Part shown: in pieces, positions 11,254 through 31,265 of the stretch | Layout: each line of letters opens with the position of its first letter | How positions within the stretch are numbered: the stretch's first letter is position 1 | Assembly (NCBI GenBank): GCA_043814965.1 | Contig: JBDRJN010000032.1 | Span: forward strand, 20,126 to 84,125 | DNA: 64,000 bases | Direction of reading: 5' to 3' | DNA from: Candidatus Omnitrophota bacterium | GTDB lineage: Bacteria > Omnitrophota > Gorgyraeia > Gorgyraeales > Gorgyraeaceae | Notes under the pieces: model-generated | Told to the model about the DNA's origin: nothing | What the model saw: only the letters and a program-made list of their open reading frames with translations | Databases searched by the model: none | Translations under genes and position numbers: made by a program

Positions 11254-13839
11254 TCAAGGCCTTTTCGATTCTTGGAAACATATAAGTCTTTGTGATACAA
11301 CATCTGACATGATCCTTAATTTTTTATCCTCTACATCATATACACTTACGACACCTTCATACTTTATGGATCCCGGCATAAGTCTTTTAAAAGAGTCTTC
11401 CAGCTGCTTAAACCATTCATTATTCAACGAGACGTCTTTCTTTTCCGGAAAGAGAGCAATATAAAATATATTTGTCTCCACTAAATCCTGGAAAAAGTGT
11501 GTCCCAAAAGATAACTCTGGCATCAGATTGCCAGCTGAAAAAGCGATCTCTGCTAGAACTGTTACATTATTTATCTCGGCAAATTTTACTGGTACGCCCA
11601 AAGACGGGGTCGTAGTGCCCCATCTCCCAGGCCCCATCAGAAGAGTAGGCAGCGTAAGCCTATCTTCGATGCTCCTGTTAAGATTTCCCACTATGCGCGC
11701 GATCTCATATTTGTCTGACAACGTAAGTTTACTATATCCTTCAGGATCAACATATATTATCCTTTTTATACATTGCGAGATGTTTCCCCCTAGAAAATAC
11801 CCTTGCGATCTAAAGAATATATCTTCTTCCTTTATAGCCTCTGGTATCTCGACTTTATTACTCAATCCCCATGTCTGTAGAGGCCTGCACTGCAATAGAT
11901 TTACCTTGAACGTACCATCATTTGTAAAATTTACTGTGAATTCTATTTCAACAGGATAATTATAGCTTTCTTCGAGCGCCCTCAATATCTTCCTAAAAGA
12001 ACCCGCTATCTTATTATCTTTAAACACATTATCAAGTGTCAAGATCCAGTATTCTTTTTCTTTCATGGAGCTTTCTTTCATCATTCGCATGGCTTCATAG
12101 TCTTTCACTGCCATACGGTCCAGGCCCATATATATATTTTTATCTACGAGGTCTCCAAAAGCAATAGTCTGGAATGCGTTTTCTTTTGTATTTATAATAT
12201 CGACTTCGTGCTGTGAAAATTTTCTTAGGTCATCTTTTTCCGCATATGGCCTTTTCAAAGGATCATCAAGCACGACCATCCTAGGATAATCGCCTTCAAC
12301 GCGGTTAACCGCCCTTGTTCCAAGACCGAACACCAGCCTAAGCATACCAGCTTTTGGGTCCATGCTCTCATTCCAAACATATGTATTGTGGGATATGCCG
12401 ACCCCTGCAAGATCAGGAAAAAAATAATATTTATGATGCGCTCCTGAAACCCTCTGCACCAAGAGCGCCATCTGTTCATCTAGCTTATCAAGCCCTCTTT
12501 GTTTTCTATACACAAGCGCGTCTTCGCTCATAGTGCTTGCATATATCCTCTTTACAGCATCCGCAAATTGAAGATACCTTTGTTCAGGCGTACCTTGATT
12601 TGCTAAAAATATACTTTCGTATTTTCCGGCAAATGCATTACCAAACCCATCTTCCAGGAGAGAGCTTGAACGTATTATAATAGGTGATGACCCAAAATAT
12701 TCTATGATCTGCTGGAAATGCTCCATTATATTCTCTGAGAACACCCCGTAAAGCATCTTGTCTTTCAATAGCTTCGCTGTCTTGTAATATCCTTCTTCTG
12801 TCTTTTGCTGCATGCGTAATTTCCACAATTTGTTCTCGACAATATATGAATAAAAGATATCGGATCCTATATAAAATGAGTCGTGCGGCTCTGAGAGGTT
12901 TTTCCAATCAATGGACTTGGCCTTCGATAGGATCTCCCGGGCCAAAAGCATCCCTACTGTCTTACCTCCGACAAAACCTGTTCCTATCAGCCGTGATTTT
13001 ATATCTATGATCTTCTCCAGAGAAAAATTTCGCACTGCTAGGGACAGGATCTTCTTGTTTTTTGTGATCATTATGCTGCATAATTTTTTTATGGTGCTAT
13101 TTATCTTTTCTTTTGAAGCACCGTTCCTGGCCAATCCTTCTGCCTCCAGGAACAGGCGGTCCCAGTAATCAAGGTTCCTCTTTGCGCTTTCTGCTCCTTT
13201 TTCTCGGATATATGAAAGTATTTTTACAGCATTAACGCTGTCAGCGATAGGAATATATTTATTTTTATTTCTTTGATGAGGGAGGAACATCGTAGGCGAA
13301 TATCTGTTCCATACTTTCAATGGATGTATATAAGAGCTCCCCTCGCAATGATACACATCCATAAGTAATTGTGTTGTCTCGCGTATACACGCTATAGATT
13401 TAAAAGAATGGTTGTTGCGCAATATAGAAAAATATGTAACGGTCTTGAGTTCATAAAGATAAGGGCATGTCACCATGAAAAAATTTCCTATCATAAGGTC
13501 AGTAGCCCATGCCAAAAGAAGCTCTGACAGGCAATCAAATACATAATATGCCCCTTCGCCTTCCTGTGTAATAATATTGTTTATTTTAGTAGTAAAAGAC
13601 TCGAATCCCGCATAAGCATTGAGCTCATAACGCTTAATACCCTTTGAAGGCTTGAGCAATTCCTTATGAGAAGCAAACCTCATATATATAATGTTCTTTT
13701 TATCTTTTAGGGCTTGATCTACAAAAGGCTTTGCAAGATCAATATAGTCTTTTATATCATCTATCTGCCAGACTACATTGTCTCCTGTCTTAAGCCCTGT
13801 TATTACATCATCCAGACCCTTGATGCCAGTACTTATCAT
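11254..13839 (-). CDS. PEP/pyruvate-binding (PPDK_N-type ATP-grasp) domain protein with a degenerate RecA/KaiC-like N-terminal domain
   Basis: 861 aa. The middle and C-terminus carry GGKTVGML, IIRSSSLLEDGFGNAFAGKYESI and LVQRVSGAHH, which are typical of the PEP synthase / PPDK nucleotide-binding domain. The N-terminus (GIKGLDDVITGL..G.NVVWQ) resembles a KaiC/RadA fold but lacks a Walker A motif. I saw no phosphohistidine swivel domain. Confidence 0.65.
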   Translation of the reverse strand: MISTGIKGLDDVITGLKTGDNVVWQIDDIKDYIDLAKPFVDQALKDKKNIIYMRFASHKELLKPSKGIKRYELNAYAGFESFTTKINNIITQEGEGAYYVFDCLSELLLAWATDLMIGNFFMVTCPYLYELKTVTYFSILRNNHSFKSIACIRETTQLLMDVYHCEGSSYIHPLKVWNRYSPTMFLPHQRNKNKYIPIADSVNAVKILSYIREKGAESAKRNLDYWDRLFLEAEGLARNGASKEKINSTIKKLCSIMITKNKKILSLAVRNFSLEKIIDIKSRLIGTGFVGGKTVGMLLAREILSKAKSIDWKNLSEPHDSFYIGSDIFYSYIVENKLWKLRMQQKTEEGYYKTAKLLKDKMLYGVFSENIMEHFQQIIEYFGSSPIIIRSSSLLEDGFGNAFAGKYESIFLANQGTPEQRYLQFADAVKRIYASTMSEDALVYRKQRGLDKLDEQMALLVQRVSGAHHKYYFFPDLAGVGISHNTYVWNESMDPKAGMLRLVFGLGTRAVNRVEGDYPRMVVLDDPLKRPYAEKDDLRKFSQHEVDIINTKENAFQTIAFGDLVDKNIYMGLDRMAVKDYEAMRMMKESSMKEKEYWILTLDNVFKDNKIAGSFRKILRALEESYNYPVEIEFTVNFTNDGTFKVNLLQCRPLQTWGLSNKVEIPEAIKEEDIFFRSQGYFLGGNISQCIKRIIYVDPEGYSKLTLSDKYEIARIVGNLNRSIEDRLTLPTLLMGPGRWGTTTPSLGVPVKFAEINNVTVLAEIAFSAGNLMPELSFGTHFFQDLVETNIFYIALFPEKKDVSLNNEWFKQLEDSFKRLMPGSIKYEGVVSVYDVEDKKLRIMSDVVSQRLICFQESKRP

Positions 13840-13860: not shown

Positions 13861-15327
13861 TCACATGACTGGTAAATTGCTCTCACCCATAAGATACTTG
13901 TCGATCGAATGAGCAGAACGCCTGCCTTCTGAAATAGCCCATACTACCAATGACTGTCCGCGATGCATATCTCCCGCGGAAAATATCTTATCAACCGATG
14001 TCATATAATTTGCATCTGTTGCTACATTCCCCGATCTATCCAATTGCACTTTTAGATCCGAAAGCAGGCCCTCTCTTTCAGGATGTAAAAAACCTACTGC
14101 GAGTATTACCAGATCTGCTTGTATCTCGAACTCGCTTCCCTGTATCTCTTTCATCACAGGGCAAATATTGCCACTCTCTTTTGTAAACTCCACTTCCATA
14201 CAAGAAAGTTTTTTTATACGGCCTTTATCTCCTATGAAACGCTTTGTAAGGACAGCCCAGCGACGGTCCGCTCCCTCTATGTGGCTGGACGATGTTTTTA
14301 ATAAAAGCGGGTAGGTTGGCCATAGGCAATCATGGCTGCGGCATTCTAAAGGCTTAGGCATGACCTCTATCTGCACAACGCATTTGGCGCTTTGTCTATT
14401 AGCAGTACCTACACAGTCTGAACCTGTATCGCCTCCTCCTATAATAACAACTTTTTTATCTTTTGCATCTATAATCTCATCTACCTGTATTTTTTCGCCC
14501 GATACTCTCTTATTCGCCTGACAAAGATAATCCATTGCAAAATATATGCCCTCAAGATCTCTTCCTTCTATCTTGAGGTCCCTCGGGACTCTCGAGCCTC
14601 CTGCAAGACATATCGCATCAAATTCATCTAAGAGCTTGCTAGCAGGATATCCTTTCCCTGCTTCTACGCCAGTTTTAAAAATAACCCCTTCTTTTTCCCA
14701 TATATCAATACGTCTATCTATAAGGTATTTTTCGAGTTTAAAATCTGGTATACCATAACGCAATATACCGCCTATCTTTTTATCCTTCTCAAAAACAGTC
14801 ACGCTGTGGCCCGCTTTATTAAGCTGCGCTGCGCATGATAAACCCGCAGGGCCTGAACCTATAACAGCTACTTTTTTGCCGGTCTTATATTTTATCTTAT
14901 TTGGTTTTATAAATCCTTTTTTAAAACCTGTCTCTATAAGTGCTAGTTCATTCTCGCGGATAGTAACAGCATCGCTGGTTAAGCCCAGCACGCACGCATA
15001 TTCACATAGCGCAGGGCATACTCTGCCTGTTATCTCTGGAAGATTATTTGTAGCATCCAAAAGCTGTAATGCCTTTTGCCATTTACCATGGAACATGTAA
15101 TCATTCCATTCCGGTATATAATTTCCTATCGGGCAGCTAGAATGGCAGAATGGTGTAGCGCAGTCCATACAGCGCGAGGCCTGTTCCATTGACTCTTCTT
15201 CAGGCCGCAGCCTACAGACATCCTTGAAATCCTTGATACGTTCACAGACTTCCCTGTGCTCTCCACTTTTTCTCGCAATCTTTAAAAAACCCCTGAAATC
15301 ACCCATCATATTCCTCCGTAAGATCAA
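13861..15327 (-). CDS. gltD: Glutamate synthase (NADPH) small subunit
   Basis: 488 aa. 4Fe-4S Cys cluster near the N-terminus and a dinucleotide-binding VAVIGSGPAGL motif. It overlaps the gltB stop. Confidence 0.9.
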   Translation of the reverse strand: MILRRNMMGDFRGFLKIARKSGEHREVCERIKDFKDVCRLRPEEESMEQASRCMDCATPFCHSSCPIGNYIPEWNDYMFHGKWQKALQLLDATNNLPEITGRVCPALCEYACVLGLTSDAVTIRENELALIETGFKKGFIKPNKIKYKTGKKVAVIGSGPAGLSCAAQLNKAGHSVTVFEKDKKIGGILRYGIPDFKLEKYLIDRRIDIWEKEGVIFKTGVEAGKGYPASKLLDEFDAICLAGGSRVPRDLKIEGRDLEGIYFAMDYLCQANKRVSGEKIQVDEIIDAKDKKVVIIGGGDTGSDCVGTANRQSAKCVVQIEVMPKPLECRSHDCLWPTYPLLLKTSSSHIEGADRRWAVLTKRFIGDKGRIKKLSCMEVEFTKESGNICPVMKEIQGSEFEIQADLVILAVGFLHPEREGLLSDLKVQLDRSGNVATDANYMTSVDKIFSAGDMHRGQSLVVWAISEGRRSAHSIDKYLMGESNLPVM

Positions 15328-18300
15328 GACTTTCTTCTATCTTTATGCCTTCAAGGATGCGTTTATATTCTATAGGTATGACTTTGACGAACTTTTTAAG
15401 TTCTTCGTGCATGGAATTTATTATTTTTTTTGCTTTATCGCTTTTTGTGTATTTAAAATGATTATGAAGGAGATGATAAACAGTATCCTTATCTTCATCT
15501 TTTACCTTTTCCAGCTCAACCATGTCTGTGTTGCATCTCTCTTTGAAATTCCCATCTTCGTCATATACATAAGCTATGCCGCCGGACATTCCTGCTGCAA
15601 AGTTTCTACCTGTCTTTCCAAGTATGATTATCCTTCCTCCTGTCATATATTCACAGCCATGGTCCCCTACGCCTTCTACTACAGCATAAAGACCTGAGTT
15701 TCTTATGCAGAATCTCTCTCCTGCCATTCCCCTGATATAGGCTTCTCCGGATATGGCCCCATAAAAAGTAGTGTTGCCTATGATAACATTCTCATCGCTT
15801 TCATATTGAGACCTTTTGTCCGGGTACACGATTATTTTCCCTCCTGAGATACCTTTTCCCACATAGTCATTCGTCATGCCCTCTAGTTCAAATGTAACTC
15901 CTTTTGCAAGAAATGCACCAAAACTTTGTCCAGCTATTCCCCTGAATTTACACACTACAGTATCTTCCAAGAGCACACCATCACCGCACCTCCTACAAAT
16001 CTCTCCGGAAAGCATCGCGCCTACGGCTCTGTTGGTATTATTTATCTCTGCCAAAATACTGACTGGTTCATTTTTTTCTAAAGAATCCTTGCATTTCCTG
16101 ATAAGTTCTCTATCTAGGGATGCTTCAAGCCCTATTTCTTGTCCAGGTTGATAGCGCCTCCCTATATATTCTGGAAGATCAGGCTTATAAAGGATCCTGG
16201 AATAATCTATTCCCTTTGCTTTCAAGGGCACAATATCTTTATTTACATCAAGAAGCTCTACTCTGCCTATCATCTCGTCTATAGTCCTTACGCCTAACCT
16301 TGCCATTGTCTCGCGAAGTTCCTGCGCTACAAAATTAAAATAGTTCACTATATATTCCGGCCTTCCCTTGAAATTTTTCTGTAAAATACTGTCCTGCGTA
16401 GCGACTCCTACTGAACAGTTGTTCAGATGGCAATGCCTCAGCATGACACATCCGCTTACAACAAGCACAGCAGTACAAAAACCATATTCCTCTGCTCCTA
16501 ATATTGCTGCGATCGCTACGTCCCGGCCTGTTCTTATCTGGCCGTCTGTCTGTATCCTGACCCTTGAACGCAAGTTATTAAGTACAAGTGTCTGGTGAGT
16601 TTCGGAAAGCCCCAATTCCCAAGGAAGCCCTGCGTATCTTATAGAACTTCTTGGAGATGCGCCTGTACCGCCGTCTCCACCTGATATAAGGATCATATCA
16701 GCATGGCCTTTTGCTACACCCGCCGCAACTGTCCCAACTCCTACTTCAGAGACAAGTTTTACGCTTATACGCGCTTTTGGATTTGCATTCTTCAGGTCAA
16801 ATATGAGCTGCGCAAGGTCTTCTATAGAATATATATCATGATGCGGCGGCGGAGAAATAAGAGTAACTCCAGGGGTTGTATACCTTGTTTGCGCGATAAC
16901 TTCACTTACTTTATGTCCTGGCAGCTGGCCGCCTTCCCCAGGCTTTGCGCCCTGCGCGATCTTTATCTGTATCTCATCTGCATTGACAAGATAGTTTATA
17001 GTGACCCCAAACCTTCCGGAGGCAACTTGCTTTATAGCGCTTCGCCTCGAGTCTCCGTTTGGTAAAGTTATAAACCTGTTGGGGTCTTCCCCTCCTTCAC
17101 CAGTATTGGATTTTCCTCCGATCCTATTCATGGCTATAGCGATCGTCTCATGCGCAGGCCTTGAGATAGAGCCAAAACTCATAGCCCCTGTTGCAAAGCG
17201 TCTCATTATGCTCTTTACTGGCTCGACTTCTTCGATAGGAACAGGACTTGTTTCCTTGAACTTCAATAAGCTTCTTAAGGTCGTAGGATTGTTTGATTGA
17301 TCGTTTATCATCCGCGCGAACTCTTTATATTTATTATAATCATTATTTCGCGTTGAATCCTGTAAGCTCGCTATAGTCTTAGGATTCCAGAGATGGAACT
17401 CCCCATCCTTTTTCCATTGATATACCCCTCCGCTTGTTAGGTAAGGGGTATCTACGCCTCTTTCAGAATAAGCGTGGTCATATCTTTTTATAGTCTCTTC
17501 TGCTATCCCTTCAAGCCCAACCCCTCCGATCCTAGAAACAGTGCCTGTAAAATATTTATCTATGATAGACTCGTTCAGGCCTAGGGCCTCGAATATCTGA
17601 GCGCCTCTATAACTTCTAAGAGTAGATATGCCCATCTTGGAAAGTATCTTTAATATGCCTTCTCTTATCGCCTTATTGTAATTCTTAAGGGCCTTTTGTA
17701 TATCCAAAGAAAGCTCTTTTTCTGTTATTAGATATTCTATTGCTTCATATGCAAGATACGGATTTACACAACCTGCGCCATAGCCAAAAAGCAAAGCAAA
17801 ATGGTGCACCTCTCTTGGTTCCGCGCTCTCGACTATTAGCGCAACCTGTGAGCGTATGGTCTGCCTCACTAGATGTTGGTGAACAGCGCTTGTAGCTAAA
17901 AGCGCTGGAAGAGCAATATTGTCTTTATCGCTCCCCCGGTCACTCAATATTATAAAAGAATAGCCTTTTTCAATAGCATATTCTGCCTCAAAACATATCC
18001 TTTCAAGCACCTTTACAAATCCTTCCTTACCGCTCTTTGCATCAAAAAAAGTATAGATAGTCTTTGTCTTAAAACCATTTATGCTGATATCGCGTATCTT
18101 CTCAAGCTCTCCATCGGTCAATATAGGATTTCTTACCCTGATCTTATGGCTATGCTCTGGGGTTTCTTCTAAGATGTTTTTCTCCGGGCCTATAAAGCTC
18201 TCCAGGCTCATGACAAGTTTTTCTCTTATAGAATCTATGGCTGGATTTGTCACTTGCGCAAACAGCTGTTTAAAATAATTATAGAGCATCTGCGGTTGTT

Positions 18301-19840
18301 CTGACAAAAAGGCATGAGGAGTGTCATTGCCCATACTACCTACGGGCTCTTTGCCATCCTCTGCCATAGGCTTTAATATCAACTTAAGGTCTTCTCTGGA
18401 ATAACCAAATGCCTTGAGACTGCGGATTATGTCCTCGGATCTTTGTTTGTTAGTCCCGCTAGCCATAAGTTTATCAAGGTCTACCATGCTCTTGGTGTTC
18501 CATTCACCGTATGGACATTGTAAAGACACCCTCTTTTTTATTTCAGGATCATGTACTATAGAACCTAATTCAGTATCTATAAAAAATATCTTTCCTGGTT
18601 CCAGCCTCCCTGAAACCTTGATATCCGAAGGGTCTATGCCAAGAACCCCTACCTCTGATGCCATAACTACAAAATCATTTTTAGTCACTATATAGCGCGC
18701 AGGGCGCAGGCCATTTCTGTCCAAGACAGCTCCTATATTCTTTCCATCCGTAAATGCTATCGCAGCTGGCCCATCCCAGGGTTCTGCAAAACATGCATGA
18801 TATGTATAAAAATCCTTGAGTTCTTTTGTCATAAGGTTGTTATGCTCCCAGGCTTCAGGGATAAGCATCATCATAGAACTTTCAAGAGACCTGCCTGAAA
18901 GGACCAGAAGTTCAAAAAAATTATCTATTGCGGCAGAATCGCTTCCGCCTTCAACAATAACTGGTTTTATCTTTTCTATGTCTGTAGCGAATAAACCGCT
19001 TGCAAGCAACCGTTCTCTTGCGCTTACCCAATTGATATTGCCTCTTATAGTATTTATCTCTCCATTATGGGCTAAAAATCTAAAAGGCTGCGCCAGGTCC
19101 CAGGTAGGAAAAGTATTAGTGCTGTAACGTGAATGCACCAGGCATAAGGCGCTCTTTATATTTTTATCCTTGAGGTCCAGGAAAAAATTCTCAAGCTGGG
19201 TAGGCATAAGCAGCCCCTTATAAGAAAATGTACGGCTGGATATATTGGTAATATAGAAAGCTCTCTTTTCCTCTAAGCTGGAGTTACGAATAGCATTATC
19301 AACTTGTTTTCTTATTAGATACAGCCTTCTCTCAAAGCTTAATGCATCCTCTTTGGTCATGATCTTTTTATTGCTTCCTATAAATATCTGTTCAAATACC
19401 GGCTGAGCGTCTCTTGCAGTCTTGCCGATATCAGAATTGTCTATAGGTACTGTACGCCACCCCAATAAAACCTGGCCTTCTTCTTTTATGATATTCTCGA
19501 AAACCTCCTTACAGAATTTTCGCTCTTTATCTTTCTGTGGCAAAAATATTAGGCCAGTTCCATATGAACCCTCTAGCGGTAGATCAATCTTGGCTTCTTT
19601 CGCTGCCCTTATAAAAAACTCATGAGGTATTTGTATTAATATACCGGCGCCATCGCCTGTTTTTGGATCTGCCCCTACTGCCCCGCGATGAGACAACCGC
19701 CTTAATACCTCTATACCCTGCTTTACAATAGAATTCGATCTTTCTCCTTTAATATTGCAGACAAACCCCACCCCGCAGCTATCTTTTTCAAATTGCGGAT
19801 CATACAGTCCTTGTTTTTCTGAAAAATAAGGTTGCCTCAT
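15299..19840 (-). CDS. gltB: Glutamate synthase large subunit
   Basis: 1513 aa. N-terminal Cys amidotransferase (CGVGF), a central FMN domain, and a C-terminal GXXG repeat domain. Confidence 0.95.
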   Translation of the reverse strand: MRQPYFSEKQGLYDPQFEKDSCGVGFVCNIKGERSNSIVKQGIEVLRRLSHRGAVGADPKTGDGAGILIQIPHEFFIRAAKEAKIDLPLEGSYGTGLIFLPQKDKERKFCKEVFENIIKEEGQVLLGWRTVPIDNSDIGKTARDAQPVFEQIFIGSNKKIMTKEDALSFERRLYLIRKQVDNAIRNSSLEEKRAFYITNISSRTFSYKGLLMPTQLENFFLDLKDKNIKSALCLVHSRYSTNTFPTWDLAQPFRFLAHNGEINTIRGNINWVSARERLLASGLFATDIEKIKPVIVEGGSDSAAIDNFFELLVLSGRSLESSMMMLIPEAWEHNNLMTKELKDFYTYHACFAEPWDGPAAIAFTDGKNIGAVLDRNGLRPARYIVTKNDFVVMASEVGVLGIDPSDIKVSGRLEPGKIFFIDTELGSIVHDPEIKKRVSLQCPYGEWNTKSMVDLDKLMASGTNKQRSEDIIRSLKAFGYSREDLKLILKPMAEDGKEPVGSMGNDTPHAFLSEQPQMLYNYFKQLFAQVTNPAIDSIREKLVMSLESFIGPEKNILEETPEHSHKIRVRNPILTDGELEKIRDISINGFKTKTIYTFFDAKSGKEGFVKVLERICFEAEYAIEKGYSFIILSDRGSDKDNIALPALLATSAVHQHLVRQTIRSQVALIVESAEPREVHHFALLFGYGAGCVNPYLAYEAIEYLITEKELSLDIQKALKNYNKAIREGILKILSKMGISTLRSYRGAQIFEALGLNESIIDKYFTGTVSRIGGVGLEGIAEETIKRYDHAYSERGVDTPYLTSGGVYQWKKDGEFHLWNPKTIASLQDSTRNNDYNKYKEFARMINDQSNNPTTLRSLLKFKETSPVPIEEVEPVKSIMRRFATGAMSFGSISRPAHETIAIAMNRIGGKSNTGEGGEDPNRFITLPNGDSRRSAIKQVASGRFGVTINYLVNADEIQIKIAQGAKPGEGGQLPGHKVSEVIAQTRYTTPGVTLISPPPHHDIYSIEDLAQLIFDLKNANPKARISVKLVSEVGVGTVAAGVAKGHADMILISGGDGGTGASPRSSIRYAGLPWELGLSETHQTLVLNNLRSRVRIQTDGQIRTGRDVAIAAILGAEEYGFCTAVLVVSGCVMLRHCHLNNCSVGVATQDSILQKNFKGRPEYIVNYFNFVAQELRETMARLGVRTIDEMIGRVELLDVNKDIVPLKAKGIDYSRILYKPDLPEYIGRRYQPGQEIGLEASLDRELIRKCKDSLEKNEPVSILAEINNTNRAVGAMLSGEICRRCGDGVLLEDTVVCKFRGIAGQSFGAFLAKGVTFELEGMTNDYVGKGISGGKIIVYPDKRSQYESDENVIIGNTTFYGAISGEAYIRGMAGERFCIRNSGLYAVVEGVGDHGCEYMTGGRIIILGKTGRNFAAGMSGGIAYVYDEDGNFKERCNTDMVELEKVKDEDKDTVYHLLHNHFKYTKSDKAKKIINSMHEELKKFVKVIPIEYKRILEGIKIEESLDLTEEYDG

Positions 19841-20064
19841 ATCTTGAATTTCTCCGAATCTATACCCAATCTTCTAACTTTATTATAAAGGGTATTTCTA
19901 TGGATACCCAGCATTTTCGCTGCTATTATCTTGTTGCCAAAAGACCTCTTTAGCGCTTTTTCAATAAGCATCTTTTCCATGCCCCCTATTACAACCGAAT
20001 AGATATGGCCTTTATGGATCATTATGAAATCATCATCTATGTTATCAATATCTTTACTCATCAT
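19837..20064 (-). CDS. Small stand-alone Fis-type (NtrC C-terminal-like) HTH DNA-binding protein
   Basis: 75 aa. IEKALKRSFGNKIIAAKMLGIHRNTLYNKVRRLGI matches the Fis / NtrC HTH_8 signature. A 4-nt ATGA overlap with gltB indicates translational coupling. Confidence 0.65.
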   Translation of the reverse strand: MMSKDIDNIDDDFIMIHKGHIYSVVIGGMEKMLIEKALKRSFGNKIIAAKMLGIHRNTLYNKVRRLGIDSEKFKI

Positions 20065-20087
20065 TCCAGTGCTATTCTGCCTAAATC

Positions 20088-20141
20088 TTATGCAGTATTT
20101 TTTAAAAAATTTTAATCATTATTGCAGGGGAGGGGTATCCC
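20088..20141 (-). terminator. Rho-independent terminator downstream of glnA1
   Basis: Perfect 13-bp GC-rich stem (TTGCAGGGGAGGG / CCCTCCCCTGCAA, loop GTAT), followed on the minus strand by a U-rich tract. Confidence 0.55.
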
Positions 20142-20165
20142 TCCCCTGCAATATACTGATCTTGA

Positions 20166-21494
20166 TCAAAGGATCGATAGATATTTATCCAATTCGTACT
20201 GAGGTACCTGTATCCTGTAACTATCCCATTCCTTTTTCTTCAGCTCTATGAATCTCGGGAAAATATGTGCCCCAAGGGTCTTTTTAACTAATTCACTTCC
20301 TTCTGTAATATTAATAGCCTGGCCTAAGTTATCAGGTAAGGTCTCTATACCTTGCGCCTTTCTTTCATTGTCGCTTAGATGATATAGATTGCCTTCCATT
20401 GCACCAGGGCATTTATAGCCTTTCTCTATCCCCTCTAATCCTGCATGAAGCATTGCTGCAAATGTGAGATATGGGTTACATGCTGGGTCACATGCCCTGA
20501 ATTCACACCTTGTAGCCTTTTCCATACCAGGATGATATAAAGGGACTCTGACAAGGGCTGATCTATTTCTGCGAGACCACGCGACATATACAGGCGCTTC
20601 GTAACCAGGCACAAGTCTCTTGTAAGAATTTGTAGTTTGAGCAAATATAGAACAGATCTCTTTTGAATGTTTTAATAGGCCTGCTATGTATGAACGCGCT
20701 GTATCAGACAGGTTATCCTTTGTGCTTTTATCAAAAAATGCGTTCTTCTCACCTTTAAATAGTGACTGGTGAGTGTGCATACCTGAACCATTCTGTCCAA
20801 ATATAGGTTTAGGCATAAAAGTAGCGTACACCCCGAATTTGCTGGCGATCTCTTTTACTGCTATTCTATAGGTGATGACATTATCTGCCATCTTTAATGC
20901 GTCATCATATCTCATATCGACTTCATGTTGACTTGGCGCAACTTCATGATGAGAATACTCTATCTTGATGCCCATCTTCTCTAAAGCCAATACCGTCTCT
21001 CTTCTTAAGTCACTTGCTACATCCAAGGTCGTAAGGTCAAAATATCCACCTTTATCAAGTATCTCTGTGCCCTTATCATCCTTAAAATAGAAAAACTCCA
21101 GTTCCGGGCCTAGATAAAAATGATCGTATCCCATATCAGATGCTCTTTTTAGGGCCTTTTTCAAAACATACCTTGGGTCACCTTCATAAGGCTGTTTATC
21201 TGGTGTCAAAACATCACAGATCATTCTTGCGACAGCCTTTTCGCTCGGCCTCCATGGAAGCAGGCAAAAAGTGTCAGGATCAGGGAGAGCTATCATGTCG
21301 CTTTCTTCAATATCCTGGTATCCTGTGATAGATGAACCGTCGAATCCCATACCATTTTCCAAAGCGCCTTCCAGCTCAGAATCAGTTATAGAAAAACTCT
21401 TCACCTGGCCCAATAGATCCGTAAACCAAAGCCTGATGAATTTTACATCCTTTTCCTTAACAAGCTTTATTATATCCTTCTTTGTCATACCCAT
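20166..21494 (-). CDS. glnA: Glutamine synthetase type I. The probable start is MGMTKKDII.
   Basis: GS signatures: GFDGSSI, SHHEVAPSQHE, NGSGMHTHQS and NSYKRL, plus a candidate adenylylation Tyr (NLYHL). The track start at 21530 lies inside the leader hairpin. An AAAGGGG SD sequence precedes the ATG at ~21494. Confidence 0.9.
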   Translation of the reverse strand: MGMTKKDIIKLVKEKDVKFIRLWFTDLLGQVKSFSITDSELEGALENGMGFDGSSITGYQDIEESDMIALPDPDTFCLLPWRPSEKAVARMICDVLTPDKQPYEGDPRYVLKKALKRASDMGYDHFYLGPELEFFYFKDDKGTEILDKGGYFDLTTLDVASDLRRETVLALEKMGIKIEYSHHEVAPSQHEVDMRYDDALKMADNVITYRIAVKEIASKFGVYATFMPKPIFGQNGSGMHTHQSLFKGEKNAFFDKSTKDNLSDTARSYIAGLLKHSKEICSIFAQTTNSYKRLVPGYEAPVYVAWSRRNRSALVRVPLYHPGMEKATRCEFRACDPACNPYLTFAAMLHAGLEGIEKGYKCPGAMEGNLYHLSDNERKAQGIETLPDNLGQAINITEGSELVKKTLGAHIFPRFIELKKKEWDSYRIQVPQYELDKYLSIL

Positions 21495-21527
21495 TTTTAC
21501 CCCTTTCTCGGTTTTTTGCCTCGTATT

Positions 21528-21676
21528 CATTAAGTAGAAAAGACGTTCCTATAGCGCTTGTCCTAGCTATAAGAACGTCTTTGTTCTATCTGGGTGATTA
21601 ACACAAACTTTGTGCTTATCTACCTATACTGGTAGCCTTCATATATACAAGTAAAAAAAGAGTGCTTTTGGTAACT
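21528..21676 (-). promoter_or_regulatory. Conserved nitrogen-regulon leader module, copy E1. Upstream of glnA1.
   Basis: On the gene strand the module contains, in order: AGTTACCAA, then 12 nt, then TTTTTACTTGTATA. Next come the palindrome GCACAAAGTTTGTGT and the hairpin AGAAC-AAAGAC-GTTCT. A 9-bp stem follows (AAGACGTTC...GAACGTCTT, enclosing TATAGC...GCTATA) with UUUUCUACUU after it, ~35 nt before the ATG. Confidence 0.55.
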
Positions 21677-23357: not shown

Positions 23358-23497
23358 TTTTTACTAAAACAAAAGAGGCGTCCCTATAATTTTTTACAAC
23401 AATAAGAACGCCTTCGTTCTATTAGCCTTTACACAAACATTGTGCTTAGATACCTAATTACTTATATAAGTAAAAATAGAGGTAGCTTGGTAACTTA
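23358..23497 (-). promoter_or_regulatory. Conserved nitrogen-regulon leader module, copy E2. Upstream of amt1-glnB1.
   Basis: Blocks on the gene strand: AGTTACCAA, then 12 nt, then TTTTTACTTATATA. Next come the palindrome AGCACAATGTTTGTGT and the hairpin AGAACG-AAGG-CGTTCT. A stem AGGCGT...ACGCCT is followed by CUUUUGUUUU ahead of the start. Confidence 0.55.
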
Positions 23498-23591
23498 GGC
23501 CAAATCTTAATTGATAATTTATTGTTTAATCTTATATACCTGCGTAAAAGCATTATTCTAAGCTAGCCGGAAAATAGCTGATTAGAAAAAA

Positions 23592-23803
23592 GATAAAAGG
23601 AATTCTGTAAGCGAATTTGAAAATTTAACCTTTTATGAAGCGTTTTGGCGGTTTTTAAAAGGCTCGAAACTATCCGAAGCCAGCACGCCAGATTTTGTGC
23701 TGGCAAGTTTTTCGAGCCCCGACAAAATGCGTAATAAAAGGTGTCCCAAAGTAAATTCTATAAGTGGGAAATTTTCACCTGAGCGAACGGAATTCCTTTT
23801 ATC
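23592..23803. repeat. 212-bp element bounded by a perfect 14-bp inverted repeat (GATAAAAGGAATTC / GAATTCCTTTTATC). It encloses a nested GC-rich hairpin.
   Basis: The inverted repeat and the inner hairpin (GGCTCGAAA..GCCAGCAC..GTGCTGGC..TTTCGAGCC, 23661-23718) were read directly from the sequence. On the minus strand the outer stem is followed by UUUUUU. No ORF lies inside; the + ORF 23697..24038 is spurious. Confidence 0.5.
23648..23718 (-). terminator. Terminator-like nested hairpin downstream of glnK2
   Basis: A 9-bp outer stem and an 8-bp inner stem, followed by UUUUAAAAACC on the minus strand. Confidence 0.45.
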
Positions 23804-23830
23804 TTTAAACAAATTACTAACTATAACTTG

Positions 23831-26304: not shown

Positions 26305-26415
26305 TGTAAAAGTTAAAAAATAAAACAGGCGTTCTTTATAAGAACGCCTTCGTATCAACACAACTATGTGTCTTTATCTGCTTATACAAGTAAGAATTTG
26401 ATTACTTTGGTAACT
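26305..26415 (-). promoter_or_regulatory. Conserved nitrogen-regulon leader module, copy E3. Upstream of porin-amt2-glnK2.
   Basis: Blocks on the gene strand: AGTTACCAA, then 12 nt, then TTCTTACTTGTATA. Next come the palindrome ACACATAGTTGTGT and ACGAAGGCGTTCTTAT, which forms the 5' arm of a strong terminator (GGCGTTCTT-ATA-AAGAACGCC plus UGUUUUAUUUUUU). The start follows ~35 nt later. Confidence 0.55.
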
Positions 26416-26472: not shown

Positions 26473-26988
26473 TTAATCAAACTTCCTATGCCATTTTTTT
26501 ATTATGTTCTTCTTATGCTTTAGGATCATGACATGGGATATATTCATCTCTTTTGCAGCTTCCCGAACTGTATATCCCTTAAGGAGATACGAGAGTACGG
26601 TCTTTTCGCTATCCGTCAAGCCTATGCCCTTCAATTCATCAACCGTAAGCCTGCGCTCCATGCTATCCGGAAAGCTTTCCTTTTTGTCTTCAAGGATATC
26701 GCCTAACGTCAGGTCTGTTGAAGGAATGATTTCATTGAGACTTGTTAATAATGCCTTTGGCCTTCCTTTTCTTAAAAAATTTTGAATATGGAACTCGCAC
26801 CCTTTGATAATATAACTCTCATTCTTATCGATCGGGGCCCCATACTTATAATTCTCTAGTAAATACAGGCACATCTCCTGATAAAGGTCATCTTCGCTAT
26901 AGAATCCTTTTAAGATATGCCTTCTAGCAATAAGCTTAAGCGTAGGAGTTATTTTTTCAAGTAGTATCCTAAAATCCATAAGTATCAC
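26473..26988 (-). CDS. ECF-type sigma-70 family factor
   Basis: 171 aa with a region-2-like segment (DDLYQEMCLYLLENY) and a region-4 HTH (LTDSEKTVLSYLLKGYTVREAAKEMNIS). An AGGTGA SD precedes the internal ATG (MDFRILL) at ~26979. Confidence 0.6.
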   Translation of the reverse strand: MILMDFRILLEKITPTLKLIARRHILKGFYSEDDLYQEMCLYLLENYKYGAPIDKNESYIIKGCEFHIQNFLRKGRPKALLTSLNEIIPSTDLTLGDILEDKKESFPDSMERRLTVDELKGIGLTDSEKTVLSYLLKGYTVREAAKEMNISHVMILKHKKNIIKKWHRKFD

Positions 26989-26995
26989 CTATTGA

Positions 26996-27045
26996 CTAAA
27001 AATAAAAAAGTCCTTTCCAGTAGAACTCTCTACCAAAAAGGACTT
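26996..27045 (-). terminator. Intrinsic terminator immediately upstream of the ECF sigma gene
   Basis: 9-bp stem (AAGTCCTTT...AAAGGACTT) with an inner hairpin, followed on the minus strand by UUUUUAUUUUUAG. Confidence 0.5.
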
Positions 27046-27054
27046 CATTGTCCT

Positions 27055-27087
27055 ATAAATATAAAAAGCGTTCCTTTCCTGGAACGC
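27055..27087 (-). terminator. Second tandem terminator in the spacer between the 266-aa gene and the ECF sigma gene
   Basis: GCGTTCC-AGGAAA-GGAACGC hairpin followed by UUUUUAUAUUUAU on the minus strand. Confidence 0.5.
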
Positions 27088-27250
27088 CTCATCGCCTTTA
27101 TATTGAGCACTATCTTTGTACTCAATATAAGTTTACCATCTTATGGGTGTACTGTCAATAGCCTTTTTTCTACTAGGGTTTTTCGCTGAGAAATCCAAGC
27201 GTCTTTTTGAGGCCCATCTCACAAAAAAAGCGAAGATCGTTTATAGCTTA

Positions 27251-30539: not shown

Positions 30540-31265
30540 TTACTTCATCTCATGCGTCATTACTATGGCTTCAGCGACATCCTTCATAGGCTTACGCCTA
30601 TCCATGCTGAACTTTTGTATCTTTCTAAAGGCATCTTCTTCTGTGAGACCTTCTTCTTTCATCAAGATACCTTTTGCTTTTTCTACTACTTTTCTTGTCT
30701 CGAGTTCTTCCTGTATAACACGCGTCTTTACCATAAGCTCTGTATTTTCTATAGCGATAGCTGCTTGATTTGCAACGCTTGTGAGGACGCTTATCTCTGT
30801 TTTTGAAAATTTATGCGGCTTTGAAGTGTAACAGTTTAAAGCTCCTATAACCTTATTTTTTACAGCTAAAGGCACGCACAAAAGTGAGGCAAGGCCTTCT
30901 TTTTGGGCAATATTTTTGTATTTGTATTCGGGATCCTTTAAAATATCCTCGACTACCAAAGGCTTATTAGCTGCGACTACTTTCCAGACCAAGCCCTCGC
31001 CTTTTTTTAGAGGGTCCTTACCTATATATTCTTCACTAATGCTTTGGGTTGCCCTTATAGAAAGATGTTCTTTTTTTTCATCCAAGAGCATAAGCGTACA
31101 GATCCTTGAATTCATGACTTCTGCTGTGACTGTTACGATAAGTTTGAGTATATCTTCTAGATAAAGATCGCTCGATATGGCTCTAGAGATCTTGGAAAGC
31201 GCTTCTATGGTATCAGCTGCTTTTGTATTCGTATTGGATCTTACTGCCTTATTTTTCTTTTTCAT
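30540..31265 (-). CDS. GAF-ANTAR domain RNA-binding antitermination regulator
   Basis: 241 aa. The N-terminal GAF domain is followed by a C-terminal ANTAR domain (ELETRKVVEKAKGILMKEEGLTEEDAFRKIQKFSMDRRKPMKDVAEAIV). It has a 4-nt overlap with lpxI. Confidence 0.8.
   Translation of the reverse strand: MKKKNKAVRSNTNTKAADTIEALSKISRAISSDLYLEDILKLIVTVTAEVMNSRICTLMLLDEKKEHLSIRATQSISEEYIGKDPLKKGEGLVWKVVAANKPLVVEDILKDPEYKYKNIAQKEGLASLLCVPLAVKNKVIGALNCYTSKPHKFSKTEISVLTSVANQAAIAIENTELMVKTRVIQEELETRKVVEKAKGILMKEEGLTEEDAFRKIQKFSMDRRKPMKDVAEAIVMTHEMK

Follow-up and report, generated by a model that had tools for sequence, protein, structure and literature searches.

We analyzed a 64-kb stretch of a Candidatus Omnitrophota contig (hereafter, the window) and focused on hth8, a gene at 19837..20064 on the reverse strand (-) that encodes a stand-alone helix-turn-helix (HTH) protein of the Fis/NtrC type, 75 amino acids (aa) long, directly ahead of the glutamate synthase (GOGAT) genes gltB and gltD. 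Our analysis makes it probable that this protein is an autoregulating, domain-minimal member of the Fis/NtrC family that controls hth8–gltBD by binding a 17-bp near-palindromic box, TGCATAAGATTTAGGCA, located at 20078..20094 (-), 13 nt 5' of the hth8 ATG. Omnitrophota is a widespread, uncultured phylum whose gene regulation is, to our knowledge, experimentally unknown. What appears to be new here is the phylum-wide position of a domain-minimal regulator of the Fis/NtrC family ahead of the GOGAT genes, together with a predicted operator and regulon; limited literature searches found no description of it, and nothing relevant on a stand-alone Fis-type HTH beside gltB or on nitrogen regulation in Omnitrophota. 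Loci and contigs other than the window are given as L numbers.

The hth8 gene and its protein

The 75-aa translation of hth8 is MMSKDIDNIDDDFIMIHKGHIYSVVIGGMEKMLIEKALKRSFGNKIIAAKMLGIHRNTLYNKVRRLGIDSEKFKI. Pfam identified HTH_8 as its sole domain (E = 4e-13; 49.3 bits, cut-off 22), spanning residues 29–65 (19870..19980, -) with the recognition helix ..LGIHRNTLYNKVRRLG inside, and detected neither a receiver nor an AAA+ domain in the protein. An earlier note, made from the DNA letters, had described just such an isolated DNA-binding domain, located it between glnA1 and gltBD, and pointed to an overlap of its stop codon with the gltB start; each of these points held. The flanking genes were identified by Pfam, and the overlap, ATGA at 19837..19840 (-), is read directly from the sequence, with TGA at 19839-19837 and ATG at 19840-19838.

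An identical protein is annotated at NCBI in a Candidatus Omnitrophota metagenome-assembled genome. Compared with the orthologue in L001 (67% identical), hth8 showed a ratio of nonsynonymous to synonymous substitution rates (dN/dS) of 0.09 with saturated dS, similar to the values for gltD (0.13) and glnK (0.14). Because this ratio is low and comparable to those of gltD and glnK, hth8 is a real coding gene, and it is under purifying selection; with homologues found phylum-wide, the open reading frame (ORF) is also conserved. Residues L51, G52, R55, N56 and T57 are invariant across 42 hth8 homologues.

Searches of solved structures, with the single sequence and with a profile, both returned Fis as the best match. 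The family profile aligned to Fis residues 34–97 at E = 5e-16 and to the NtrC DNA-binding domain (1NTC) at 9e-6; the single-sequence alignment to Fis spans residues 49–97 only. An AlphaFold model built from 42 homologues (predicted local distance difference test score, 85) comprises a long N-terminal helix at 3–39, the HTH at 44–51 and 55–65, and a short C-terminal helix, with no strand. Its top fold matches are Fis and the DNA-binding domains of NtrC4 and NtrC1, the latter superposing at 0.6–0.9 Å over 43–45 residues. The protein nevertheless missed the NCBIfam equivalog cut-offs for Fis (NF001659, 32.7 vs 99 bits; NF002517, 34.8 vs 122 bits) and the TIGR01818 cut-off for NtrC (31.6 vs 558.6 bits), and the profile alignment gave no counterpart of Fis residues 1–33 in the 75-aa protein. 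In Fis, these residues include the beta-hairpin arm, which activates invertases. Since the cut-offs were missed, receiver and AAA+ domains are lacking and the Fis N-terminus has no counterpart, we assign the protein to the HTH_8 superfamily as neither Fis proper nor an enhancer-binding protein.

A word-index search for homologues retrieved 2 proteins, and an exhaustive HMMER search retrieved dozens of full-length stand-alone relatives of 65–95 aa. A profile search yielded at least 6887 small homologues, whose taxon-bearing names were, with one exception, all Omnitrophota or Omnitrophica; those from Joint Genome Institute pipelines are labeled "GlnG" or "Fis". Conserved family features are G-x-[IV]-Y, EK.LIE.AL, GNQ..AAK.LGINRNTL and a family-specific C-terminal tail, ID..K[FYW]K. 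In L029, L034, L037 and L062, and in the 129-aa protein of L204, an N-terminal extension of about 55 aa has a start that looks receiver-like (MITILVLEDE.., ILIADDEG..). This likeness was not significant by Pfam or BLASTP and stands as an impression; the extension may be a vestige of a larger ancestor.

Conservation of the hth8–gltBD linkage in Omnitrophota

We then scanned genomes with 10 closer hth8 sequences, which gave 80 loci, onto which the window proteins were mapped by tblastn. In about 40 loci, all or nearly all from Omnitrophota (some labeled Planctomycetia), an hth8 homologue lies directly 5' of gltB–gltD on the same strand. The gene upstream of hth8 varies among them and may be glnA1, another glutamine synthetase (GS) gene, glnK, carB, nadE or a radical SAM gene. 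Across 40 orthologous loci, the gap between hth8 and gltB is -4 or -1 nt in about 15 and 2–44 nt in most of the others. Exceptional loci are still nitrogen-related: hth8 follows an ANTAR gene in L042 and L076, a second copy precedes glnA1 in L021, and in L052 and L074 a short GltB-like gene comes after glnA–hth8. The same pattern appeared in four homologues drawn independently from the protein database, with hth8–gltBD in three and hth8–nadE–split GOGAT in the fourth. With hardly an exception, the loci examined link hth8 to gltBD or to other nitrogen genes, and they do so down to 37% identity. The earlier note had called the arrangement unusual; this is true outside the phylum and not within it, where hth8 before gltB is the rule.

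Scan matches outside Omnitrophota were mostly the C-terminal domains of full-length NtrC genes, as in Erythrobacter, where ntrC is followed by ntrX. Small stand-alone acidobacterial proteins also matched, and the nitrogen genes of the window were not detected within 10 kb of them. No AAA+ activator was found across the roughly 40 loci of 20 kb each, and a tblastn search of the 64-kb window with full-length NtrC returned the HTH segment only, with no AAA+ activator.

A 17-bp box upstream of hth8

Alignment of the regions upstream of hth8 revealed a 17-bp near-palindrome, TGC[A/T/C][T/C]AAA[A/T]NTTA[G]GCA. The pattern TGC-N11-GCA with an AT-rich center occurs upstream of 28 of 40 homologues, compared with a mean of 0.5 and a maximum of 3 in 500 shuffling trials. 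It lies 6–75 nt from the start codon, and its central base is never G among the 28 sites. From these sites, which were chosen by the TGC-N11-GCA pattern, a weight matrix was built without the window. The box at 20078..20094 scored 23.3 bits with this matrix and was the single strong site in the 64 kb. With leave-one-out matrices, the best match in each 20-kb locus was usually the pre-hth8 box. The four independent loci, all outside the matrix, carried the box and a T-run before hth8 in every case (14.8–22.8 bits), the L202 site being a TGA variant.

The T-run is a second fixed element. In the window it is TTTTTT at 20104..20109 (-), possibly part of the promoter, and ends 9 nt upstream of the box in the alignment of 28 sites. 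The same 9-nt distance, with high information content, was seen in every aligned locus and likewise in L203–L205.

The box also accompanies hth8 when the operon is rearranged. It heads nadE–hth8–gltBD in L030 and L036, lies 18–37 nt before ANTAR–hth8 in L042 and L076, and occupies the glnA–hth8 spacer in L052 and L074. Other boxes in relatives precede a Glu_synthase-domain (GltB-like) gene, nadE, a class I glutamine amidotransferase gene, and type III and type I GS genes. Because the box precedes these other glutamine and glutamate genes in Omnitrophota, the family looks like a small regulator of nitrogen assimilation acting at promoters that do not depend on sigma-54. In several such leaders, the box comes right after a -10-like TATAAG or TATAAT, or beside P1, the first hairpin of the RNA leaders described below; DNA-level and RNA-level elements therefore coexist as separate entities.

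Relation of the box to known sites and regulators

The Escherichia coli Fis motif is GNTYAAAWTTTRANC (PMC6907758), and the inner 15 bp of the box match it at about 12 of 15 positions. The 17-bp NtrC box is TGCACCAnnnTGGTGCA (PMC8743547), whose length and outer TGC/GCA triplets the box shares. The window site, a predicted one, accordingly shows the features of a Fis/NtrC-type site: a dyad of 15–17 bp with outer (T)GC...GC(A) and an AT-rich center. A metagenome scan with the exact 17-mer TGCAYAAAAWTTAGGCA returned mostly chance matches, and among the matches listed, 1 of 120 was an Omnitrophota hth8–gltB locus. Also among those listed, the 17-mer stood upstream of glnK/glnB–glnA or amtB in four GC-rich contigs (L145, L148, L189 and L165). 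Two of these, L148 and L189, are nearly identical, and in them a sequence read by eye as a sigma-54-like promoter separates the 17-mer from the gene. The copies in these four contigs are probably NtrC upstream sites of Proteobacteria. In addition, full-length ntrC genes in L031, L066 and L080 have high-scoring matrix sites nearby. The likeness to both consensus sequences, together with sites near glnK, glnA, amtB and ntrC, places the box among the sites that HTH domains of the Fis/NtrC type recognize in nitrogen regulons.

The hth8 protein has the HTH_8 fold, small size and, presumably, dimeric state in common with Fis of E. coli and with short, roughly 77-aa Fis proteins (NF002517). The hth8 protein differs in having no counterpart of Fis residues 1–33, in scoring far below the equivalog cut-offs, in its extra conserved tail ID..K[FYW]K and in belonging to another phylum; hth8 is linked to gltBD and nitrogen genes, whereas Fis is linked to dusB. 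Fis autoregulates its own promoter.

The C-terminal domains of NtrC (GlnG) and of other sigma-54 enhancer-binding proteins such as NtrC1 and NtrC4 are the same domain, as the superposition of NtrC1 and NtrC4 on the model illustrates, and NtrC also shares the 17-bp site in a TGC-N11-GCA frame and a nitrogen-assimilation regulon; the nearest genome-scan matches outside Omnitrophota are full-length NtrC genes. Unlike NtrC, the hth8 protein has no receiver, AAA+ domain or obvious phosphorylation input, and its site is promoter-proximal with no sigma-54 promoter. With neither a receiver nor an AAA+ domain, it cannot activate sigma-54. NtrC also represses sigma-70 promoters that its sites overlap. 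A third comparison is with TnrA and GlnR of Bacillus, which are small HTH nitrogen regulators; they repress or activate genes of glutamine and glutamate metabolism, the glutamate synthase operon included. They have no ligand-binding domain of their own and receive their signal through a short C-terminal tail that contacts glutamine synthetase. They differ from the hth8 protein in belonging to the MerR family and in their site, TGTNAN7TNACA.

Alternative readers of the box

Several observations weigh against the proposed pairing of box and hth8 protein. We infer this pairing from co-localization and from a site geometry typical of the family, and the shuffles, the leave-one-out scan and the four held-out loci speak to chance, not to causation. 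Because the matrix sites were chosen by the TGC-N11-GCA pattern, the invariance of the outer triplets is partly a matter of construction. A recognizable box is missing from about 5–7 of the 40 loci. The box is also asymmetric, its left half containing TGCA and its right half TGCC, and it favors one orientation with respect to the gene; some of it could thus belong to a promoter. No convincing sigma-70 -35/-10 pair was found for the hth8 promoter when several registers were read by eye on the aligned sites. The Shine-Dalgarno sequence of hth8 is poor (..ACTGGAATGATG), and the neighboring genes carry AGGAGG sites. Finally, L204 (452-3166) encodes a GAF histidine kinase and a full-length activator with receiver, AAA+ and HTH_8 domains beside amt–PII–glnA–hth8–nadE. 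One genome can therefore carry both the small protein and an NtrC-type activator, and in some genomes another HTH_8 protein could own the box.

A rival explanation, which we consider unlikely as a whole, is that the box is read by another factor, either a full-length NtrC-type activator encoded elsewhere in the genome or, as a promoter element, RNA polymerase itself, and that the hth8 protein has a different target or titrates or heterodimerizes with that activator. The oriented box and the fixed, promoter-like T-run agree with it, as do the kinase–activator pair of L204 and the resemblance of the 17-mer to an NtrC upstream site in GC-rich contigs. The genomic context argues the other way: neither the window nor any of the roughly 40 loci, each of 20 kb, encodes an AAA+ activator, and the box tracks hth8 through four operon layouts. 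Strict and relaxed patterns for a sigma-54-type promoter (TGGCAC-N5-TTGC) had no match in the 64-kb window. An enhancer-type site would not be expected as near to the start codon as 6–75 nt, and for the window box, which lies 13 nt from the start codon with no sigma-54 promoter or AAA+ activator in the window, an enhancer-type mechanism is excluded.

The possibility that the box is itself a sigma-54 promoter was considered separately, in both orientations, and rejected, as the spacing and the GG/GC elements are unfit and the pattern is unmatched. A consensus scan found no promoter-like site between the glnA1 terminator and hth8.

The E1–E3 leaders and the GAF–ANTAR protein

The earlier note had proposed a different target for the HTH dimer: the CACAAA-N-TTTGTG palindromes of three upstream modules, E1–E3. 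As DNA operators, these would give it control of amtB, glnK and glnA. We regard this reading as very unlikely, and on their predicted structure these palindromes are probably the first hairpin of two-hairpin antiterminator leaders of the ANTAR type, lying in transcribed RNA.

The window contains exactly three copies of the promoter-like sequence GTTACC-N18-CTTRTATA; they precede glnA1, amtB2 and Gcw_chp–amtB1, and none precedes hth8. Each copy is followed by the palindrome (hairpin P1), a small hairpin (P2) and a strong terminator with a U-tract. E1 (21536..21675, -), before glnA1, has the promoter-like GTTACC-N18-CTTGTATA at 21644-21675, P1 AGCAC-AAAGUUU-GUGUU at 21600-21616, P2 AGAAC-AAAGAC-GUUCU at 21572-21587 and the terminator at 21536-21581. 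In E2 (23366..23494, -), before amtB2, the corresponding elements lie at 23463-23494, 23431-23445, 23405-23420 and 23366-23413. E3 (26315..26414, -), before Gcw_chp–amtB1–glnK1, has a promoter-like sequence at 26383-26414, P1 GACAC-AUAGUU-GUGUU at 26357-26372, a weak P2 of only 2 pairs, and a terminator at 26315-26349. The terminators of E1, E2 and E3 fold at -36, -23 and -20 kcal/mol (z-scores -7.9, -3.8 and -3.6), and in E1 and E2 the same bases serve as 3' arm of P2 and as 5' arm of the terminator, so that the two structures are mutually exclusive.

To characterize the hairpins more broadly, 21 modules from the window and relatives were scanned, with G at loop position 4 as a search criterion and not an independent result. 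P1 was present in all 21, with the stem [AG][CU]AC/GUG[CU] and a loop of 6 nt in 13 and 7 nt in 8, E1 and E2 included. Loop position 1 is A in 17 of 21, and the remaining positions are variable and non-palindromic. The fourth stem pair covaries (G-C in 8, A-U in 7, G-U in 5). P2 was found in 18 of 21 modules; its loop is 6 nt long in each of the 18 and begins with A in 15 of them, and its 3' arm again forms the 5' arm of the terminator. E3 has a 6-nt P1 loop, its arms lying one base closer than those of E1 and E2, which suits an RNA loop and not a fixed DNA dimer site.

Some features do speak for the palindromes as DNA operators. E1 and E2 are 13-nt palindromes of the form GCAC-N7-GTGY; the equivalent element in L014 and L016 is a perfect TGCACAAAGTTTGTGCA in a TGC-N11-GCA frame, scoring 16.6 bits by the box matrix; and a true box lies beside or overlaps P1 in the leaders of L032, L024, L037, L038 and L059, indicating that DNA-level and RNA-level control can share one leader. 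In the window, however, E1, E2 and E3 score -1.2, 5.1 and -18.5 bits, against 23.3 bits for the pre-hth8 box. The arm spacing of E3, the 4–5 bp stem with a mostly 6-nt, non-palindromic loop across the 21 modules, the covarying fourth pair and the second hairpin of the same design overlapping the terminator all favor RNA. The scan required G as the fourth loop base and recovered such a hairpin in all 21 modules; the box center is never G. The island also encodes an ANTAR protein.

That protein, at 30540..31265 (-), contains GAF_2 (E = 9e-25) and ANTAR (E = 2e-22) domains by Pfam, and its gene is syntenic in L001, L004 and other loci; it is the likely binder of the E1–E3 leader hairpins. Targets of ANTAR antiterminators are known to be grouped ahead of genes for PII, ammonium transporters and glutamine synthetase (Ramesh et al. 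2012, PMC3369931). E1–E3 resemble the EutV, NasR and AmiR systems (PMC3369931) in this location, in having two small hairpins, with loop A1 and with a G4 that the scan itself required, of which the second overlaps an intrinsic terminator, and in the nearby ANTAR gene. They differ in the 7-nt rather than 6-nt P1 loop of E1 and E2, in the weak P2 of E3 and in a sensor that is a GAF domain, not a receiver. A search of the leaders against Rfam gave no family, whether the gathering threshold was applied or E values as high as 1 were allowed.

Further elements of the same island were noted. A fourth ANTAR-type leader lies at 26989-27150 (-), upstream of an extracytoplasmic function (ECF)-like sigma gene at 26473-26988, with the promoter-like TTGACA..TAAACT, P1 GAGUAC-AAAGAUA-GUGCUC, P2 AGGAC-AAUGAA-GUCCU and two terminators; its P1 shares part of its 3' arm with a weak box-like TGCTCAATATAAAGGCG (12.2 bits). 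The sequence GGTTACC-N18-CTTGTATA is kept across Omnitrophota before amtB, glnK and glnA, with three copies in the window, two in L001 (6183 and 8409) and others in about 20 further loci, and its two parts lie farther apart than the -35 and -10 elements of a normal sigma-70 promoter. The ECF-like sigma protein (171 aa; TIGR02937 at 36 bits, below the cut-off of 42.9) might be a dedicated sigma factor for these promoters.

The last alternative, that hth8 encodes a generic nucleoid-associated Fis homologue whose place before gltB has no regulatory meaning, is likewise very unlikely: Fis is the best solved-structure match, the box resembles a high-affinity Fis site and Fis proteins can be as short as about 77 aa (NCBIfam NF002517), but the linkage to gltBD and nitrogen genes persists down to 37% identity, the Fis cut-offs are missed by wide margins (32.7 vs 99 and 34.8 vs 122 bits), the first 33 residues of Fis have no counterpart, and a specific box accompanies hth8 into every context.

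Proposed mechanism and significance

We thus return to the hth8 protein as the probable regulator of its own operon. The analysis establishes the gene, its fold class, its phylum-wide linkage to gltBD and the conservation and distribution of the box; we infer the identity of the box binder, the sign of regulation and the promoter anatomy as follows. The protein consists of a predicted dimerization helix, the HTH and a short conserved C-terminal tail and lacks receiver, AAA+ domain and Fis beta-arm. Its gene would be transcribed together with gltBD, and its translation would, in this genome, be coupled to that of gltB. A dimer would bind TGCATAAGATTTAGGCA at 20078-20094, between the fixed T-run and the start codon and probably across the transcription start. 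Binding would lead to autoregulation of hth8–gltBD and thereby set GOGAT levels; repression is the likelier sign because of the position of the box. Translational coupling would tie synthesis of the hth8 protein to that of GltB, and this coupling, together with the conserved tail, would leave room for partner-mediated sensing. In a separate circuit at the RNA level, the GAF–ANTAR antiterminator would act on the E1–E3 leaders and gate the amtB, glnK and glnA genes of the window.

A more far-reaching scheme, which we consider rather improbable in its entirety, is that nitrogen assimilation in Omnitrophota is a two-tier circuit without classical NtrBC/sigma-54 logic. In the first tier, a Fis/NtrC relic reduced to its DNA-binding domain would occlude ordinary promoters at the 17-bp box and be held at a fixed ratio to GltB by coupling; its signal would come from docking of the ID..K[FYW]K tail on an enzyme or PII protein (GOGAT, GS or GlnK), in the manner of trigger enzymes. 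The second tier would be the GAF–ANTAR antiterminator, possibly with the ECF-like sigma factor dedicated to the GGTTACC..CTTGTATA promoters.

Should binding of the box by the protein prove true, it would show how far a regulator of the Fis/NtrC type can shrink, down to the DNA-binding domain alone at non-sigma-54 promoters, and still keep a nitrogen regulon; automated annotations of such proteins as "GlnG response regulator" or "Fis" would then be corrected. The 75-aa protein, the 17-bp box and the target genes listed above form a defined test set. The RNA circuit, with its ANTAR protein and about four leaders in the window alone, is a second circuit that can be separated from the first.

Neighboring genes and other features of the window

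The genes around hth8 run in the order glnA1, hth8, gltB, gltD. The glnA1 gene (20166..21530, -) encodes a type I glutamine synthetase (Pfam Gln-synt_N and Gln-synt_C), gltB (15299..19840, -) the 1513-aa large subunit of glutamate synthase (GATase_2, Glu_syn_central, Glu_synthase and GXGXG), and gltD (13861..15327, -) the small subunit (Fer4_20 and Pyr_redox_2). Two amtB–glnK pairs also lie upstream of hth8, and farther upstream, beyond them, are the ECF-like sigma gene, glnA2, queF and the GAF–ANTAR gene. A terminator-like hairpin, TTGCAGGGGAGGGATACCCCTCCCCTGCAA followed by an A/T-rich tail, was read from the sequence after glnA1 at 20122..20151 (-). It is missing from the list of the consensus terminator scan, and hairpins occur at the equivalent place in many orthologous loci.

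Comparison with L001 gave two further observations. GlnA1 (20166-21530; 8570-9892 in L001) is 97% identical with dS 0.44, and the flanking genes are 68–71% identical with saturated dS near 2, a difference suggesting that glnA1 recently passed between lineages by transfer or gene conversion. In L001 (10213-14746), gltB is called as two ORFs of 410 and 1115 aa, which could reflect a frameshift, an assembly error or a real split.

Downstream of gltD, an 861-aa protein (11254-13839, -) has only PPDK_N, a phosphoenolpyruvate/pyruvate-binding domain, and its gene is syntenic with gltBD in many Omnitrophota loci. Between glnK1 and E2, an element of about 218 bp (23589-23806) has 38-nt inverted terminal arms that are 82% complementary and an inner 24-nt inverted pair, and looks like a miniature inverted-repeat element. 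Long inverted repeats similar to it fill the intergenic spacers of L001.

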